Both the position numbers and the translations under genes were made by a program. Source: Kayfunavirus AN17P1. Taken from it: a stretch of DNA of 39,656 nt. The stretch lies in the sequence record OZ035755.1; one strand, written 5' to 3'. Below are positions 395 to 39,656 of this stretch, piece after piece; position 1 is the first letter of the stretch; the number at the start of each line of letters is the position of its first letter. The notes beneath the pieces are model-generated. The model searched no databases, had not been told where the DNA came from, and saw only the letters and a program-made list of their open reading frames with translations.

Positions 395-832
395 ATGCTC
401 GAACTTTTACGTAAAGCAATCCCGTGGCTGGTTGCAGGACTCCTGTTCTGTTCTGGCTACTGGGTGGCAGACAATAAGTGGGAGGCGAAGGTAAACAATG
501 AGTACATCACGAAACTTGAGGCACGAGAGAATCAACGGGCTGCTGTCCAAGGTGAAATCAACAAAGTGTCAGCCGAGTGGCAAGACAAGATGTCCGCGCT
601 GGAAGGCTCTACTGATAGGATTATTGCTGACCTTAACCGCGATAACAAGCGGCTGCGCGTCCGAGTCAACACCTCAGGTCTCACCGAGTCAGATGTCAGT
701 AGATGCTTCCCTAATGGTAGAGTCGAACTACACCCAGAAACTTCTAAAAGTCTTATCCGATTAACTCAGGAGGCAGACCTTAAGGAGAAGGCGCTTCAGG
801 ACACAATAAGGAGGCTCCAAGGTGTTAAGTGA
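395..832 (+). CDS. gene 18.5: i-spanin (Rz-like, T7 gp18.5 homolog)
   Basis: Translation MLELLRKAIPWLVAGLLFCSGYW... resembles T7 gp18.5 N-terminus (MLEFLRKLIPW...) as I recall it; N-terminal TM segment; SD GAGGAGG 7 nt upstream of ATG 395 (the track's ATG 380 lies inside the SD). Confidence 0.8.
   Translation: MLELLRKAIPWLVAGLLFCSGYWVADNKWEAKVNNEYITKLEARENQRAAVQGEINKVSAEWQDKMSALEGSTDRIIADLNRDNKRLRVRVNTSGLTESDVSRCFPNGRVELHPETSKSLIRLTQEADLKEKALQDTIRRLQGVK
498..764 (+). CDS. gene 18.7: o-spanin (Rz1-like lipoprotein, T7 gp18.7 homolog) embedded in +1 frame of 18.5
   Basis: 88-aa ORF wholly inside the i-spanin gene in another frame; lipobox-like LTAITSGC followed by Pro/Ser-rich region; same embedded arrangement as T7 18.5/18.7. 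Confidence 0.75.
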   Translation: MSTSRNLRHERINGLLSKVKSTKCQPSGKTRCPRWKALLIGLLLTLTAITSGCASESTPQVSPSQMSVDASLMVESNYTQKLLKVLSD

Positions 833-1259
833 TTACTACAAAGTGGACCCGGCTAGTCCATCCGGTCTGGTCTCCGTTAGGACTGGAAAGCCTGTGGGGA
901 CATTAAGTCGGATGGGATATTGGATAGTACAGACACGAAGTCTAGGCAGTAAGCGGGCCCATCGTGTGATATGGGAACTAACCAATGGTCCTATACCGCA
1001 TGGTATGCAAATAGACCACATCGACAGGAACCCTAGCAATAATACCTTAAGTAACTTACGGCTCGTTACTGCCGCTGAAAACACTTGGAATACTGGTAGC
1101 CATTATGACTCTAAGACAGGAGTGAAGTGCGTTACCCGTCACCAGAATGGTTATAGGATTCAGGTTAAACGCGGGAATGCCTATATGCGAACAACACGTC
1201 CCACTTTAGAGGAGGCTATCGCTGTCCGGGACCTAATGCTGGAGGGACTATATGTCTAA
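822..1259 (+). CDS. HNH homing endonuclease (HNH plus AP2-like DNA-binding region), 145 aa
   Basis: Motif [41 protein letters not shown] typical of phage HNH endonucleases; GTG start with SD AAGGAGG; overlaps the 3' end of 18.5 and the 5' end of terminase; T7 has no gene here. Confidence 0.8.
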
Positions 1260-3699: not shown

Positions 3700-4100
3700 A
3701 GTGTCGCCTGACCTACGGTCCTTGACCTACAGTAGCTGCCACCTACAGTATTCGATGAGTTTTGGACCAAAAGTTTGAGACCACATCTCACAGTTCAAGA
3801 ACCTCAAGTCTCCCCATAGGCCCTCTTTCAGTCCAGACCAAAGGCCCTACCCCAGTCTATCATAAGGTTAGACCGATGGTCAAGACTTCAGGTCAACGAT
3901 AGGTTGTGGCTATGGCTTAGGGAAGGACGATAGGTAGGGACTATTGGTCTGTCTTTGAGTCTCTATCTGTATCAGACCTTGAGTCACTACCTACAGTCTA
4001 ACTACCTACAGTCTAACTACCTACAGTCTAACTACCTACAGTCATCGACCATCGGTAATGCCGCTACCTACAGTCAGAGACCTACGGTTAATAGACACAA
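3700..4100. repeat. Genome terminus region: putative direct terminal repeat flanked by CCTAC(A/G)GT short repeats
   Basis: TCTCACAGTTCAAGAACC...CCCCATAGG at 3786 resembles the T7 (TCTCACAGTGTACGG) and T3 left-end sequences as I recall them; repeated GACCTACGGT / CACCTACAGT motifs on both sides mirror the CCTAAAG arrays flanking the T7 terminal repeat; no CDS. Repeat length cannot be read from a collapsed assembly. Confidence 0.5.
3986..4044. repeat. Tandem array, about 3.9 copies of 15-bp unit ACTACCTACAGTCTA
   Basis: Exact copies at 3986-4000, 4001-4015, 4016-4030 and a partial copy at 4031-4044. Confidence 0.9.
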
Positions 4101-11593: not shown

Positions 11594-11925
11594 TGACATA
11601 CTGTGATAGCACCACATACTGTGAAGCGTGTAATGGTGACGACCGCTTCCCGCACGTTGGTAAACTTGTAGGTAACAAACTACAAGAAATTGATGACGTC
11701 CGCAAGCCGTCCCACTATCAGGTCTTTGATAGCGTGGAATCCATTGAGATTATCGCACGGTCAATGACTGTGAGTGAGTTCCGTGGGTTCTGCATGGGTA
11801 ACGTCCTGAAGTATCGACTCCGGGCTGGTAAGAAGTCCGAACTGGCTACTATGGAGAAGGACCTGAACAAAGCATCCTTCTATCAGAAGCTGTTCGACTT
11901 GCATAAAGGTAAGTGCTATGCTTAA
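11593..11925 (+). CDS. gene 1.7: gp1.7-like protein (nucleotide kinase family), short 110-aa form
   Basis: C-terminal 70 aa (KPSHYQVFDSVESIEIIARSMTVSEFRGFCMGNVLKYRLRAGKKSELATMEKDLNKASFYQKLFDLHKGKCYA) closely match the C-terminus of T7 gp1.7 as I recall it; lacks the N-terminal roughly 90 aa of the 196-aa T7 protein. Confidence 0.8.
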   Translation: MTYCDSTTYCEACNGDDRFPHVGKLVGNKLQEIDDVRKPSHYQVFDSVESIEIIARSMTVSEFRGFCMGNVLKYRLRAGKKSELATMEKDLNKASFYQKLFDLHKGKCYA

Positions 11926-12004
11926 TGATACTGTGTATTACTGTGTAGTATGCGCCGGAGTTGGAGCACTAATCATTTTAATATATTGGGCCATAGAGGT
12001 GTAA
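11918..12004 (+). CDS. Small hydrophobic ORF, 28 aa
   Basis: MLNDTVYYCVVCAGVGALIILIYWAIEV; overlaps the 1.7 stop; weak support. Confidence 0.25.
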   Translation: MLNDTVYYCVVCAGVGALIILIYWAIEV

Positions 12005-21917: not shown

Positions 21918-23486
21918 ATGGCTGAACGTGAAGGGTTCGCTGCTGAAGGAGCCAAAGCGGTCTATGACCGACTGAAGAACGGTAGACAGCCATATGAGAC
22001 ACGCGCTCAGAACTGTGCTGCTGTCACTATCCCGTCACTGTTTCCTAAGGAGTCAGACAACTCATCTACTGAGTATACCACTCCGTGGCAATCCGTAGGT
22101 GCTCGCTGCTTGAACAACTTGGCTGCAAAGCTGATGTTGGCGTTATTCCCTCAGTCACCATGGATGAGACTGACAGTCTCCGAATATGAGGCAAAGACCT
22201 TGAGTCAGGACTCAGAGGCCGCTGCTCGTGTTGACGAAGGGCTGGCTATGGTCGAGCGGGTGTTGATGGCCTACATGGAGACTAACAGTTTCCGTGTCCC
22301 ATTGTTCGAGGCCTTGAAGCAGCTTATCGTCTCCGGTAACTGTCTGCTCTACATCCCTCCTCCAGAACAAGGAACCTACAGTCCTATGCGGATGTACCGC
22401 TTAGTGTCTTACGTTGTTCAACGTGATGCGTTCGGTAACATCTTGCAGATTGTGACTCTCGACAAGGTAGCGTTTAGTGCTCTACCTGAAGACGTGAAGT
22501 CTCAACTCAATGCAGACGACTATGAGCCTGACACCGAGCTGGAAGTGTATACGCACATCTACCGTCAGGACGACGAGTATCTGCGCTACGAGGAAGTGGA
22601 AGGAATTGAGGTAACAGGTACCGATGGTTCATATCCTCTGACCGCATGTCCATACATCCCGGTACGAATGGTTCGACTGGACGGTGAAGACTACGGTCGT
22701 TCTTACTGCGAGGAGTATCTGGGAGACCTGAACTCGCTGGAGACGATTACAGAAGCTATCACCAAAATGGCTAAGGTAGCCTCCAAGGTGGTGGGCCTCG
22801 TTAACCCGAACGGCATCACGCAACCTCGACGTCTGAACAAGGCGGCTACAGGTGAGTTCGTGGCTGGTCGCGTTGAGGACATCAACTTCCTGCAACTGAC
22901 GAAAGGTCAGGACTTTACGATTGCCAAGTCGGTGGCTGACGCTATCGAGCAACGTTTAGGCTGGGCCTTCCTTCTTAATAGTGCTGTTCAGCGTAATGCC
23001 GAGCGAGTCACTGCTGAAGAGATTCGTTATGTTGCTGGAGAACTGGAGGCGACCTTAGGTGGCGTGTACTCAGTGCAGTCACAGGAGCTTCAGTTGCCTA
23101 TCGTCCGTGTGCTGATGAACCAGCTTCAGTCTGCTGGCATGATTCCTGACCTTCCGAAAGAAGCGGTAGAACCTACTGTCTCCACTGGTCTGGAAGCGTT
23201 AGGTCGTGGTCAAGACTTAGAGAAGCTGACTCAGGCAGTCAACATGATGACCGGGCTACAGCCTCTGCAACAGGACCCAGACATTAACTTGCCTACCCTG
23301 AAGCTGCGACTGCTGAATGCCTTAGGTATTGACACTGCTGGCTTGCTGCTGACCCAGGACGAGAAGTTGCAACGTATGGCTGAACAATCCGCTCAAGGAG
23401 CTGTGGTCAACGGTGCGTCTGCTGCTGGTGCTAACATGGGAGCTACTGTTGGACAAGTAGCTGGTGAGGACGTGGCTCAAGCCTAA
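21918..23486 (+). CDS. gene 8: Portal (head-tail connector) protein (T7 gp8 homolog), 522 aa
   Basis: Extensive collinear similarity to T7 gp8 as I recall it (YETRAQNCA, YRLVSYVVQRDAFGN, VRMVRLDGEDYGRSY, GLVNPNGITQPRRL, AEEIRYVA). Confidence 0.96.
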   Translation: MAEREGFAAEGAKAVYDRLKNGRQPYETRAQNCAAVTIPSLFPKESDNSSTEYTTPWQSVGARCLNNLAAKLMLALFPQSPWMRLTVSEYEAKTLSQDSEAAARVDEGLAMVERVLMAYMETNSFRVPLFEALKQLIVSGNCLLYIPPPEQGTYSPMRMYRLVSYVVQRDAFGNILQIVTLDKVAFSALPEDVKSQLNADDYEPDTELEVYTHIYRQDDEYLRYEEVEGIEVTGTDGSYPLTACPYIPVRMVRLDGEDYGRSYCEEYLGDLNSLETITEAITKMAKVASKVVGLVNPNGITQPRRLNKAATGEFVAGRVEDINFLQLTKGQDFTIAKSVADAIEQRLGWAFLLNSAVQRNAERVTAEEIRYVAGELEATLGGVYSVQSQELQLPIVRVLMNQLQSAGMIPDLPKEAVEPTVSTGLEALGRGQDLEKLTQAVNMMTGLQPLQQDPDINLPTLKLRLLNALGIDTAGLLLTQDEKLQRMAEQSAQGAVVNGASAAGANMGATVGQVAGEDVAQA

Positions 23487-23601: not shown

Positions 23602-24489
23602 ATGTCTCAATCAGTTTATGCCGAGTTCGGCGTTAGCTCTAATGCAATCACTGGTTCCGTTGAGGACCTGAACGAACACCAAAAGTCTATGCTTGAACAG
23701 GACGTAGCTGTTCGTGATGGTGACGACGCTATTACCTTCAAGCAACTGGAAGCCGAAAACGAAGAGGCTACCGAAGAAGACGAGAACGTCGAAGAGGCTG
23801 AAGGTGAAGAAGAAGACCACGAGTCCGATGACGAAGAGTCTGAGACCGATGGTGAGCAGCCTGAGTTCATTGAACTGGGTGATGCACCGAAAGAGCTGAC
23901 CGAAAGTGTCACCGCTCTGGATGAAAACGAAGCTGCATTCGACGACATGGTGTCTTCTGCTGTGGAAGCTGGCAAGGTCACTGCTGATGAAATTACCGCT
24001 ATCAAGGCTGAATACGCCAAGGACGGTAAGCTGTCTGACGCATCCTACGCTAAGTTGCAGGAAGCAGGTTACACCAAGCGTTTCGTAGATTCGTTTGTCC
24101 GTGGTCAGGAAGCTCTGGCTGAACAGTATGCTGCTGGAGTGGTTCGCTACGCTGGTGGAGCTGAACAGTTTAACCGCATTCTGTCTCACCTTGAGTCAAC
24201 CGACCCGTCAACTCGTGAGGCACTGGAAGCTGCTATCGTTCGTAAGGACATTTCGACTACCAAAGCTCTGCTGAATCTGGCTGGCAAGACTCTTGGTAAA
24301 GCTGTAGGAGTTAAACCTCAGCGTACCATCACCACTCAGGCTAAACCTGTGGTAGCACCTAAGGCTCCTAAGACCGAAGCATTCAGCTCTAAGGCTGACA
24401 TGATTAAGGCTATGAGTGACCCGCGATACCTGCGTGACGCTAAGTACACGATGGAAGTGCGCGCTAAGGTAGCTGCATCGAGCCTGTAG
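23602..24489 (+). CDS. gene 9: Capsid assembly (scaffolding) protein (T7 gp9 homolog), 295 aa
   Basis: Highly acidic Glu/Asp-rich protein between portal and major capsid; strong SD AAAGGAG. Confidence 0.85.
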   Translation: MSQSVYAEFGVSSNAITGSVEDLNEHQKSMLEQDVAVRDGDDAITFKQLEAENEEATEEDENVEEAEGEEEDHESDDEESETDGEQPEFIELGDAPKELTESVTALDENEAAFDDMVSSAVEAGKVTADEITAIKAEYAKDGKLSDASYAKLQEAGYTKRFVDSFVRGQEALAEQYAAGVVRYAGGAEQFNRILSHLESTDPSTREALEAAIVRKDISTTKALLNLAGKTLGKAVGVKPQRTITTQAKPVVAPKAPKTEAFSSKADMIKAMSDPRYLRDAKYTMEVRAKVAASSL

Positions 24490-24490
24490 G

Positions 24491-24514
24491 ACTAAACTAT
24501 CACTATAGGGAGAC
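24491..24514 (+). promoter_or_regulatory. Phage RNAP promoter (phi10-like), best consensus match
   Basis: ACTAAACTATCACTATAGGGAGACC; only copy with the full TATAGGGAGA initiation region; about 100 nt before the capsid gene. Confidence 0.85.
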
Positions 24515-24615: not shown

Positions 24616-25671
24616 ATGGTAAACGTTCCGGGTCAGAAAATTGGTACAGACCAAGGTAAAGGCAAAGGCAAATCTGGTTCCGACGCTCTGGCGTTGTTCC
24701 TTAAGGTATTTGCTGGTGAAGTACTGACCGCATTCACTCGCCGCTCTGTAACTGCCGACAAGCATATTGTCCGTACCATTCAGAACGGTAAGTCTGCTCA
24801 GTTCCCGGTCATGGGTCGCACCTCTGGTGTGTATCTGGCTCCGGGTGAGCGACTGTCCGATAAGCGTAAAGGCATCAAACACACCGAGAAAGTGATTACC
24901 ATTGATGGTCTGCTGACTGCCGATGTGATGATTTTCGACATTGAAGACGCGATGAACCACTATGACGTGGCTGGCGAGTATTCCAACCAGCTAGGCGAAG
25001 CGCTGGCTATCGCTGCTGATGGTGCTGTTCTGGCTGAAATGGCTATCCTGTGTAACCTACCTGCAGCTTCCAACGAGAACATCGCTGGTCTAGGCACTGC
25101 GTCCGTACTGGAAGTTGGTGCCAAGGCTGACCTGAACACCCCTGCTAAACTGGGTGAAGCAATCATCGGTCAACTTACCATCGCTCGTGCGAAGCTGACC
25201 TCCAACTACGTACCTGCTGGCGACCGTTACTTCTACACCACGCCTGACAACTACTCTGCGATTCTGGCCGCTTTGATGCCTAACGCTGCTAACTACGCTG
25301 CTCTGATTGACCCTGAGACGGGCAACATCCGTAACGTAATGGGCTTCGTTGTTGTTGAGGTTCCGCACCTGACTCAGGGTGGTGCTGGTGAGACTCGTGG
25401 TGACGATGGTATCACTATCGCTTCCGGTCAGAAACACGCATTCCCAGCGACTTCTAGCGATACCGTTAAGGTTGCTCTGGACAACGTTGTGGGTCTGTTC
25501 TCTCACCGTTCTGCGGTGGGTACCGTTAAACTGCGTGACTTGGCGCTGGAACGTGACCGTGACGTCGATGCTCAGGGCGACCTGATTGTTGGTAAGTACG
25601 CTATGGGTCACGGTGGTCTGCGTCCTGAAGCAGCGGGAGCACTGGTTTTCACAGCAGCGTCAGCGGATTAA
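24616..25671 (+). CDS. gene 10: Major capsid protein 10A (T7 gp10A homolog), 351 aa
   Basis: Near-collinear identity blocks with T7 gp10A as I recall it (LALFLKVFAGEVLTAF, HTEKVITIDGLLTADV, AILAALMPNAANYAALIDPE, HRSAVGTVKLRDLALER, KYAMGHGGLRPEAAGA). Confidence 0.97.
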   Translation: MVNVPGQKIGTDQGKGKGKSGSDALALFLKVFAGEVLTAFTRRSVTADKHIVRTIQNGKSAQFPVMGRTSGVYLAPGERLSDKRKGIKHTEKVITIDGLLTADVMIFDIEDAMNHYDVAGEYSNQLGEALAIAADGAVLAEMAILCNLPAASNENIAGLGTASVLEVGAKADLNTPAKLGEAIIGQLTIARAKLTSNYVPAGDRYFYTTPDNYSAILAALMPNAANYAALIDPETGNIRNVMGFVVVEVPHLTQGGAGETRGDDGITIASGQKHAFPATSSDTVKVALDNVVGLFSHRSAVGTVKLRDLALERDRDVDAQGDLIVGKYAMGHGGLRPEAAGALVFTAASAD

Positions 25672-25934
25672 CGACCTTTAAGGCCCTCTCTACCGAGGGT
25701 CCTACCTTAGAGACGTATAGTTCTACGGTGGGAACCAGCTTGAAGGTTGACTTCCCTGAGCTTTCAGATGTGACCGACTGGTCGCTGCTTGATGTTGCTA
25801 CGCCTGATGGTGTTAGTTACTCCCGTAGAACCAACAGTCTCTACTTCAAGGCCACCTCTGGCGTGGAAGGTCTAGTGATTGTTGAGTATGACGGTTCGCC
25901 TGTGCGTTCCTTCAACGTATCTTTCACAAACTAA
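25644..25934 (+). other. gene 10B: Putative -1 programmed frameshift site (G GUU UUC) and minor capsid 10B extension
   Basis: GGTTTTC lies 6 codons before the 10A stop, as in T7 (GTG GTT TTC AAA as I recall it); the -1 frame is open from the site to TAA at 25932-25934, adding about 94 aa; the track ORF 25728-25934 is part of this frame. Confidence 0.45.
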
Positions 25935-25938
25935 TTGA

Positions 25939-25977
25939 AACCCCTTGGGTGCCTTCGGGTGCTTGAGGGGTTTTTTG
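25939..25977 (+). terminator. T-phi-like terminator hairpin
   Basis: AACCCCTTGGGTGCC-TTCG-GGTGCTTGAGGGGTTTTTTG: G-U-containing stem plus U-tract, resembling T7 T-phi (AACCCCTTGGGGCCTCTAAACGGGTCTTGAGGGGTTTTTTG) as I recall it; immediately after the capsid region. Confidence 0.75.
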
Positions 25978-25991
25978 CTTAAGGAGGGACT

Positions 25992-26081
25992 ATGGTCCTT
26001 ATTTACACAGGGTTAGCACTATTCGTCTTATTCTGGGCGTACCTTCTGTCCAGCTCACCGTCTAGTGCCTATGACCGTTAA
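25992..26081 (+). CDS. Small membrane peptide, 29 aa (MVLIYTGLALFVLFWAYLLSSSPSSAYDR)
   Basis: Strong SD TAAGGAGGG before ATG; one TM helix; between T-phi and gene 11. Confidence 0.35.
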   Translation: MVLIYTGLALFVLFWAYLLSSSPSSAYDR

Positions 26082-26093
26082 GGAGTAAAACCT

Positions 26094-26660
26094 ATGGCTC
26101 AATATATTCCACTGAATGCTAACGATGACTTAGACGCCATCAACGATATGCTAGCAGCTATCGGTGAACCAGCAGTCCTACAGCTTGACGAGGGGAACGC
26201 TGACGTATCGAACGCTCAACGTATCCTGCATCGTGTCAATCGTCAGGTCCAAGCTAAAGGATGGAACTTTAACATTAATGAAGCTGCTGTCCTGACACCT
26301 GATGTCCAAGACAACAGGATTCGATTCCTGCCGTCATACCTTCGTGTAATGACTGCCGGGGCCACCAGCTACTACAGCAACATGGGTGGATACCTATACG
26401 ACCTGTCCACTCAGTCAACCACTTTCACCGACCCTATAACGGTAGAGCTTGTTGAGATGAAACCGTTCTCTGAGATGCCTGTGGTATTCAGGGACTACAT
26501 CGTTACCAAGGCCAGCCGTGAGTTCAACGCTAAGTTCTTCGGTAGCCCAGAGTCTGAACTGTACCTTCGTGAGCAGGAAGCAGAACTCTATCAGCAGGTC
26601 ATGGAATACGAGATGGACACTGGTCGCTACAACATGATGTCCGACATCGGGAGGGACTAA
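26094..26660 (+). CDS. gene 11: Tail tubular protein A (T7 gp11 homolog), 188 aa
   Basis: Similarity to T7 gp11 as I recall it (ANARRILN.INRQIQ..GW.FNI.E, IVTKASR.FN..FFG.PE, MEYEMD.G.YNM). Confidence 0.9.
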   Translation: MAQYIPLNANDDLDAINDMLAAIGEPAVLQLDEGNADVSNAQRILHRVNRQVQAKGWNFNINEAAVLTPDVQDNRIRFLPSYLRVMTAGATSYYSNMGGYLYDLSTQSTTFTDPITVELVEMKPFSEMPVVFRDYIVTKASREFNAKFFGSPESELYLREQEAELYQQVMEYEMDTGRYNMMSDIGRD

Positions 26661-26887
26661 TGGCTAGTCACAACCTGAAGATTCACCGCCAGCACTTTGG
26701 TCCGGTACAACTAGGTCTAAAGACAGCAGAGCTGAGACTTAACGACCGGGACTTTAAGGTTGGCGATTGGCTTATCCTGAATGAGTGGGACAACGGGTAT
26801 ACTGGACAACAGGTAGCACGTAAGGTTGTCCACATTGCTGACGTTGGTGACATCGCTGAGGGATACGTCCTAATGAGTATGATTTAA
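26660..26887 (+). CDS. DUF3850-like (ASCH/PUA-fold) small protein, 75 aa, inserted between tail tube genes
   Basis: SD GGGAGGGA; motif LKIHRQHFGPVQLGLKTAELRLNDRDFKVGDWLILNEWD fits the DUF3850 signature as I recall it; T7 has gene 12 directly after gene 11. Confidence 0.6.
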   Translation: MASHNLKIHRQHFGPVQLGLKTAELRLNDRDFKVGDWLILNEWDNGYTGQQVARKVVHIADVGDIAEGYVLMSMI

Positions 26888-29261: not shown

Positions 29262-29311
29262 AAGGGCCTATAGATTTACCTTAACTATCACTATAGGGAC
29301 TATAGGCCCTT
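29262..29311. repeat. Perfect 12-bp inverted repeat AAGGGCCTATAG / CTATAGGCCCTT enclosing the phi13 promoter core
   Basis: Arms at 29262-29273 and 29300-29311 are exact reverse complements; the 26-nt loop holds TTAACTATCACTATAGGGA. Confidence 0.6.
29279..29302 (+). promoter_or_regulatory. Phage RNAP promoter (phi13-like)
   Basis: CCTTAACTATCACTATAGGGACT; consensus match. Confidence 0.75.
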
Positions 29312-39493: not shown

Positions 39494-39656
39494 TATGATT
39501 GAGTTAGACTTCAAGAATGAGGTCCTTAAAGCCTCTCCTATCGTCGGGACCGCTGCGGCTGATGGTGCCAGTCGGTTCTTCTTCGGACTTACACTGAACG
39601 AATGGTTCTACGTTGCAGCTATCGCGTACACCGTTGTCCAGATTGGTGTGCTAGTC
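39494..39656 (+). CDS. gene 17.5: Class II holin (T7 gp17.5 homolog), 5' part only; runs off the window end
   Basis: MIELDFKNEVLKASPIVGTAAADGASRFFFGLTLNEWFYVAAIAYTVVQIG... versus T7 gp17.5 MLSLDFNNELIKAAPIVGTGVADVSARLFFGLSLNEWFYVAAIAYTVVQIG as I recall it; SD CTGGAGG. Confidence 0.85.

Follow-up and report, generated by a model that had tools for sequence, protein, structure and literature searches.

A predicted 29-residue membrane peptide gene on an accessory cassette at the gene 11 start of Kayfunavirus AN17P1

Morons, known from HK97/lambda-type phages through the work of Hendrix and colleagues, are extra genes found between two genes that are adjacent in close relatives. They are dispensable and horizontally exchanged, have a GC content slightly below that of their flanks, and are flanked by their own promoter and terminator. 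At the protein level, KdpF, PmrR, CydX, AcrZ and T4 Ac are modulators of larger membrane complexes, of about 30 residues with a single transmembrane (TM) helix, and the type I toxins TisB, Hok, Ibs and ZorO have fewer than 60 residues and a single hydrophobic helix. T7-like phages offer two further points of comparison, namely the regulators of the holin/antiholin kind, and the coupled gene pairs or upstream ORFs of the late operons, in which a stop codon lies over the downstream Shine-Dalgarno (SD) sequence.

The locus described here has something in common with each of these. It is a small ORF at positions 25992-26081 (+ strand) of the 39,656-nucleotide sequence of Kayfunavirus AN17P1 (OZ035755.1), which as a whole is called the window below. 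The ORF has an ATG, 29 codons and a TAA stop, and its product, MVLIYTGLALFVLFWAYLLSSSPSSAYDR, was followed by ORF translation, tblastn and codon comparisons. Like a moron, it forms an extra gene between neighbours that adjoin each other in close relatives. Its GC content is 0.47 in allele 1, the form of the window, 0.39 in allele 2 and 0.44 in Przondovirus, versus 0.50 for the window, values that 90 nt are too short to judge. Unlike a moron, it has neither promoter nor terminator of its own, measures only about 100 nt, is bounded by SD/ATG repeats and takes the start signals of its neighbour; moreover, the phage is strictly lytic, with no lysogenic-conversion logic. The peptide matches KdpF, PmrR, CydX, AcrZ and T4 Ac in size, in its single helix followed by a short polar tail and in having no signal peptide, but searches of NCBIfam and Pfam gave no sequence similarity to them. 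Its length and hydrophobic helix are also those of type I toxins, and it could likewise depolarise or perturb the inner membrane, but 25992-26093 holds no promoter-like site on the minus strand and no antisense RNA, and the mRNA fold is not unusual. It would be expressed late, as is the T7 holin gp17.5, but it differs from holins and antiholins in its position outside the lysis cassette, in having no dual-start motif and in showing no homology to the holin families of Pfam and PHROGs. Finally, the stop over the downstream SD and the 12-nt gap to the gene 11 ATG are those of a coupled pair, but a pure coupling ORF needs no peptide conservation and here the peptide is conserved across lineages.

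Megablast of 25600-26700 returned 234 phage records, the best being Escherichia Kayfunavirus genomes at 94-98% identity, and the window belongs to Kayfunavirus, a K1F-like relative of T7. It is a complete, circularly permuted genome that starts with gene 18, the spanin pair, an HNH-like ORF and gene 19. Spanin genes 18.5/18.7 lie at 380-832, and holin gene 17.5 (MIELDFKNEVLKASPIVGTAAADGASRFFFGLTLNEWFYVAAIAYTVVQIGVLVYKTIKGGGKT) starts at 39495 and crosses the window end (39495-39656, continuing at 1). The HNH-like ORF, of 145 aa at 822-1259 (+), between spanin gene 18.5 and terminase gene 19, is probably a homing endonuclease. A separate observation in the early region is a perfect tandem of the 15-nt unit ACTACCTACAGTCTA, whose copies span 58 nt (3986-4043), with related ACCTACAGT motifs nearby at 3723-3753 and 4032-4088. 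Annotated relatives follow the T7 order, with scaffold gene 9, capsid gene 10A, a 10B-type ORF, gene 11, a gene for a 75-aa "RNA-binding" (ASCH-like) protein and gene 12. The 10B-type ORF of the window (phrog_7473; 68 aa, listed as 25728-25934, within 25629-25934) uses the -1 frame relative to 10A, a frame already open within the 10A end. This arrangement suggests a 10B of the T7 kind, produced by -1 frameshifting and extended by about 85 aa at its C-terminus. K1F, L005 and L062 have a short T7-like 10B tail (...TLTPQQKAARTRAANRAAKLAESNN) instead, and both 10B types assort independently of the peptide cassette. The ASCH-like gene (26660-26887; phrog_986, E=3e-35), between genes 11 and 12, is absent from K1F and about a third of relatives, again independently of the cassette. 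A linkage of the cassette with either of these neighbours was therefore rejected.

The initial annotation had described the ORF as carrying a strong SD and encoding a single TM helix with a polar tail, and each of these features was borne out. The SD is TAAGGAGG, with TAAGGAGGG at 25980-25988 leaving 3 nt before the ATG. Residues 1-19 (25992-26048, + strand), a predicted hydrophobic TM helix, include no charged residue; their Kyte-Doolittle 19-residue mean (KD19) is 2.22, and their summed Hessa score is negative. The polar juxtamembrane tail is encoded by codons 20-29 (26049-26078, + strand). Its motif, [ST][GS]PxS[PA]YD[RK], was defined from family alignments in which the P and S are invariant, and D28 and R29 are the only charged residues of the whole peptide. 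Among 223 ATG ORFs of 20-60 aa in the six frames of the window, this ORF alone combined a KD19 of at least 2.0 with an SD-like 5-mer. A second strongly hydrophobic ATG ORF, at 11918-12004 (+), encodes 28 aa (MLNDTVYYCVVCAGVGALIILIYWAIEV, KD19 2.33) and has no SD-like 5-mer. No lipobox, AxA site or positively charged n-region was seen in the peptide, and no charge precedes the helix. A reading as lipoprotein or signal peptide was rejected, as allele 1 has no Cys and the LTGPC of other alleles has Pro at -1.

Upstream of the ORF, a terminator of the T-phi type occupies 25937-25976 (+ strand) and consists of a 17-bp hairpin (GC core 25941-25970) followed by a U6 tract (25971-25976). It folds at -33 kcal/mol over an 81-nt stretch (z=-4.0), is also detected by a terminator scan, and is nearly invariant across all Kayfunavirus loci compared; we take its hairpin to resemble T7 T-phi. 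The phage RNA polymerase promoters belong to a 12-copy repeat family, CTAAACTATCACTATAGG. Copies lie at 23477 and at 24486, the latter (24486-24510, + strand), before capsid gene 10, being the last one upstream of the small ORF, and the next is at 29274-29298. Scanning the window with this family gave no phage promoter between the terminator and 29274, so that the small ORF, gene 11, the ASCH gene and gene 12 would be transcribed by terminator read-through only. T7 genes 11 and 12 are likewise expressed by read-through. Within 25977-26093, neither a sigma-70-like site nor a phage promoter was found, and no terminator follows the small ORF. Thus, the two earlier claims about transcription, that the ORF lies downstream of a T-phi-like terminator and that only read-through transcripts would carry it, both held. 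A particular case is phage ZG49 (L004, about 1040-1100), in which the terminator hairpin is seemingly deleted and the inside of an Ig-type 10B region runs into ...CCTGAGTGGTTTTTTTTGCTT, followed by the allele-2 peptide. If this loss is real, the peptide and gene 11 are transcribed there without attenuation. ZG49 records annotate gene 11 as reaching over the peptide ORF.

Comparison with relatives revealed an aspect that goes beyond the initial annotation. The gene downstream, gene 11 (tail tubular protein A/adaptor; 26094-26660, + strand; phrog_446, E=8e-68, and annotations of relatives), begins 12 nt past the small-ORF stop. At many Kayfunavirus loci the site is empty: gene 11 comes directly after the terminator, and its SD and ATG read GCTTAAGGAGGGCCTATG-GCTCAA. 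The equivalent in K1F, the type phage, is GCTTAAAGTGAGAGGAGACTTATG-GCTCAA. In the window, the small ORF starts from what is the gene 11 SD and ATG of empty-site relatives, and gene 11 lies 102 nt further on, behind a second SD. In-silico removal of these 102 nt (25992-26093, + strand) gave GCTTAAGGAGGGACTATGGCTCAA, which differs by a single mismatch from the junction that relatives show at the empty site, and the peptide therefore appears to use the gene 11 SD and ATG of cassette-free phages. Indeed, both the sequence of the small-ORF SD and its spacing match those of gene 11, an essential gene, in relatives without the ORF. This SD (TTAAGGAGGG, 25979-25988, + strand) also contains the first copy of an 8-nt direct repeat, TTAAGGAG. 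The second copy (26078-26085, + strand), 99 nt from the first, contains the small-ORF stop (26079-26081), which overlaps the gene 11 SD. Przondovirus shows the same 99-nt spacing with a perfect 15-mer, AGGAGGCTTTATGTT, and in L014 an allele-2 cassette sits exactly 3' of a K1F-type ATG. The stop overlaps the gene 11 SD in 3/3 29-codon alleles (TAAGGAG, TAGGAGG), an arrangement that, as read from the sequence, permits translational coupling to gene 11. What is added to the earlier description is, at the level of gene organisation predicted here, a presence/absence cassette that occupies the initiation region of gene 11 and has its stop over a second gene 11 SD.

A tblastn search of 50,697 phage records for peptide homologues distinguished four allele groups, two in Kayfunavirus, one in Klebsiella Przondovirus and one in Klebsiella/Proteus Molineuxvirinae. 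Allele 1 was found in 46 records, allele 2 (MFYLLTALGLFVSFWAIILLTGPCSPYDR) in about 15-19, the Przondovirus form (MFIVLSAVSLAVATMLYVVVTGPCSPYDK) in 6 and the Molineuxvirinae form (MYYLLCVTLLLFA[SG]FWCYVLATGPVSVAERRDNANSK) in 17. The slot is common to every lineage, the capsid terminator being followed by the peptide ORF and then by gene 11; T7/T3-type loci (L033-L049) have the slot without any peptide counterpart. All three Studiervirinae alleles have exactly 29 codons and no indels despite a nucleotide identity of 49-58%; in the Molineuxvirinae form, the tail is different and longer and runs into gene 11. The reading frame and the peptide were thus kept across four diverged groups, a lack of frame conservation being what the initial annotation had named as evidence against it.

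Most relatives do not carry the cassette. The gp11 protein is 100% identical between the window (allele 1), L004 and L006 (allele 2), and L005, L007, L008 and K1F (all empty), and the terminator leads directly to gene 11 in these last four, in L013 and in others. Similarly, the Molineuxvirinae locus L052 has a 99% identical gp11 and no cassette, its junction lying inside AGGAG. It follows directly from this comparison of sequences that the cassette would be dispensable and horizontally exchanged among Autographiviridae (Kayfunavirus, Przondovirus, Molineuxvirinae). In one record (IMGVR_UViG_3300045988_000061; L010, 713-1198), a 161-aa ORF occupies exactly the slot of the peptide ORF, and an HNH/endonuclease-VII-like motif (...LAVDHSHSTGEIRGVLCQRCNCAIG...) was recognised in it by eye; the slot thus appears to be an insertion hotspot. 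Short direct repeats readily allow T7-type recombination to delete what lies between them; that four lineages have kept a 99-nt unit with such flanks therefore speaks for positive maintenance.

The differences between alleles bear the mark of coding selection, with the reservation that 29 codons limit the statistical power of such tests. Alleles 1 and 2 share 56% nucleotide identity, and about 17/20 synonymous sites are changed as against about 22/67 non-synonymous ones (pS 0.86 versus pN 0.33, Fisher p=6e-5). Within groups, dN/dS was 0.25-0.33. Two Przondovirus alleles differ at 5/0/7 sites in codon positions 1/2/3, which is the pattern expected where hydrophobicity is preserved, and helix substitutions between alleles exchange one hydrophobic residue for another. 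Met, Pro and Ser are invariant in the family alignment, whose tail consensus is the motif given above. In the three 29-codon alleles tested, no other frame on either strand stays open throughout, each being interrupted by a stop in one allele or more. One further frame had been called elsewhere, as a TM protein from a TTG start across the terminator in Pipis (L062, 270-374); we rejected it because its start lies inside the terminator and its frame is not conserved. The cassette RNA is no more stable than its shuffled versions (z=-0.32, 68/200 shuffles folding as well) and has no Rfam match. Together with the constraint on the protein, this places the signal at the protein level. Leaving its role aside, the small ORF is, on these comparative grounds, a predicted genuine protein-coding accessory gene for a single-helix membrane peptide.

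Allele 1 nevertheless varies, with the non-synonymous variants V2F, G7W, A9V, W15C, A16S, S20P, A26P/L and R29H/C. In vB_EcoP-22664UKE3-2 (L053, 401-496), a C run is shorter by 1 nt, so that the last four residues are replaced (…SSPMTAKE, 31 aa) and the stop no longer overlaps the SD; this is either natural variation of the tail or a sequencing error in the homopolymer. Given this deletion and the several variants, either the allele 1 tail is loosely constrained or some of the differences are sequencing errors.

Database searches linked the peptide to no known family. Searches of Pfam, PHROG, NCBIfam and PDB sequences with the peptide gave nothing meaningful. In a set of 5.8 billion proteins, a profile search recovered five members of the family, each from one of these phages, and nothing else. 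Among 1.84 billion cluster representatives, searched exhaustively with a HMMER profile, there were only family members and one repetitive false match; the annotated members were all labelled "hypothetical protein". Scanning viral, metagenome and genome collections with a degenerate DNA pattern for TGPCSPYD[RK]-stop yielded only Kayfunavirus allele-2 copies and two chance matches, in a soil contig and in an alphaproteobacterial MAG, neither of them in an equivalent ORF. Such scans found no copy of the peptide in another genomic context. Keyword searches of the literature found no paper dealing with the 29-aa ORF. As to annotation, the MZ2340xx records list it as a hypothetical protein, and in RefSeq LM33_P1 (NC_031937) and most records inspected it is unannotated. 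The family is thus found in a minority of Autographiviridae, and a few GenBank records already list members.

Taking these observations together, we consider it very probable, from the sequence comparisons, that the ORF is a genuine, translated gene for a 29-residue inner-membrane peptide, carried on an exchanged cassette of about 100 nt at the gene 11 start and expressed by read-through. The cassette would run from one SD to the next and would have been inserted exactly at the gene 11 translation start. The peptide would take the SD and ATG that serve gene 11 elsewhere, and the cassette would supply gene 11 with a replacement SD placed over the peptide stop, so that peptide and gene 11 may be translated successively from one late mRNA. 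As this mRNA passes the T-phi-like terminator, it would be scarcer than capsid mRNA. The short SD/ATG repeats on either side are the likely sites of exchange. Being shorter than the ribosome exit tunnel, the peptide would be released and then inserted post-translationally into the inner membrane, probably with its N-terminus out and its C-terminus in. This topology is suggested by the Molineuxvirinae tail ERRDNANSK, whose three positive charges fit the positive-inside rule; the 29-aa forms are ambiguous. There, the helix might modulate some membrane process late in infection. The explanation as a whole, that is, the peptide gene and its cassette plus this late membrane role, is on balance probable.

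What the membrane process might be is a matter for guesses, and the initial annotation had suggested lysis timing or superinfection exclusion as possible roles. The likeliest guess, and still a tentative one, is that the peptide tunes lysis time through the membrane or through the one-TM holin gp17.5. Lysis timing fits best with late expression, with co-expression with class III genes including the holin, and with presence or absence at the strain level. The small ORF lies between capsid and tail genes, outside the lysis cassette (39495 onward and 380-832), and its product shows no similarity to the holin of the window. A doubtful alternative, about as plausible as lysis tuning, is superinfection exclusion or counter-defence, in which an inner-membrane peptide without any role in lysis would block DNA entry by related phages or neutralise a membrane defence or sensor of the host. 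The single TM helix would suit it, as would the passage of the cassette across subfamilies and the patchy distribution among near-identical phages with several old alleles at one site, which is typical of conflict genes. However, expression of the peptide would be late and dependent on read-through, whereas those exclusion genes that are known from lytic phages, T4 imm and sp among them, are expressed early. Besides, the peptide has no match in PHROGs or Pfam, and a search for homology to holins, antiholins or exclusion proteins (T4 Imm/Sp and similar PHROG entries; holins also in Pfam and NCBIfam) gave nothing significant. Several of these threads meet in a broader and speculative, though possible, reading, that the unit of about 100 nt is a "micro-moron" running from SD to SD, which would spread between the distantly related Studiervirinae and Molineuxvirinae by recombination, through the universal microhomology at the gene 11 SD/ATG, and be selected for an advantage in conflict conferred by its peptide, whether lysis tuning, exclusion or anti-defence.

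Other explanations give the peptide no role in the membrane. One is that translation of the short ORF acts in cis only and sets the level of gp11, by coupling or by delivering ribosomes beside the hairpin. The stop over the gene 11 SD in all three 29-codon alleles would agree with this, and so would the overlap of the Molineuxvirinae ORF with the gene 11 start. We nonetheless hold it to be unlikely, because amino acids are under purifying selection, alleles that diverge by 44-51% in nucleotides still share the helix and the tail motif, and in empty-site phages the same SD serves to express gene 11 without any upstream ORF. That the peptide is a small virion-associated or assembly factor, working with gp11/gp12 in the tail or ejection channel, might be proposed from its place among structural genes and its coupling to gene 11 in every lineage, but a fully hydrophobic helix indicates a lipid environment. 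Moreover, phages with a 100% identical gp11 lack the peptide, which is therefore not a required structural partner, and such a function is very unlikely. We judge it highly improbable that the ORF arose by chance or is decaying, as a neutral passenger of a recombination hotspot. It is true that most relatives do without it, that one phage has an HNH-motif ORF in the same slot, itself an insertion hotspot, and that allele 1 shows non-synonymous variants and one frameshifted tail; yet peptide and frame are kept across four allele groups whose synonymous sites are saturated, and the cassette persists despite its flanking direct repeats. Lastly, since T7-like late mRNAs have processing sites between genes, a structured RNA element, for instance an RNase III site or a regulatory hairpin, could be imagined in which the ORF is incidental. 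This has next to no probability and was rejected on the fold statistics and the absent Rfam match, the similarity among alleles being, in addition, one of protein rather than of nucleotides. The reading that we retain is that of an inner-membrane peptide acting late in infection.

Genes this short are routinely missed, and here is a peptide without a Pfam or PHROG family that is under selection at the protein level and crosses subfamilies. Kayfunavirus, Przondovirus and Klebsiella Molineuxvirinae provide widely used therapeutic candidates against E. coli and Klebsiella, and any effect of an accessory membrane peptide on exclusion, on host range or on the timing of lysis would matter when such phages are chosen and engineered. 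Natural isogenic pairs, with identical gp11 and with or without the cassette, make its function directly testable. If the micro-moron reading were true, the peptides would define a new micro-protein family in phages, and the cassette a minimal way for a gene to be mobile. As for its architecture, the locus suggests how a T7-like phage may gain a gene and leave an essential operon undisturbed, the newcomer taking the start signals in place and bringing a spare SD for the gene that it displaces.
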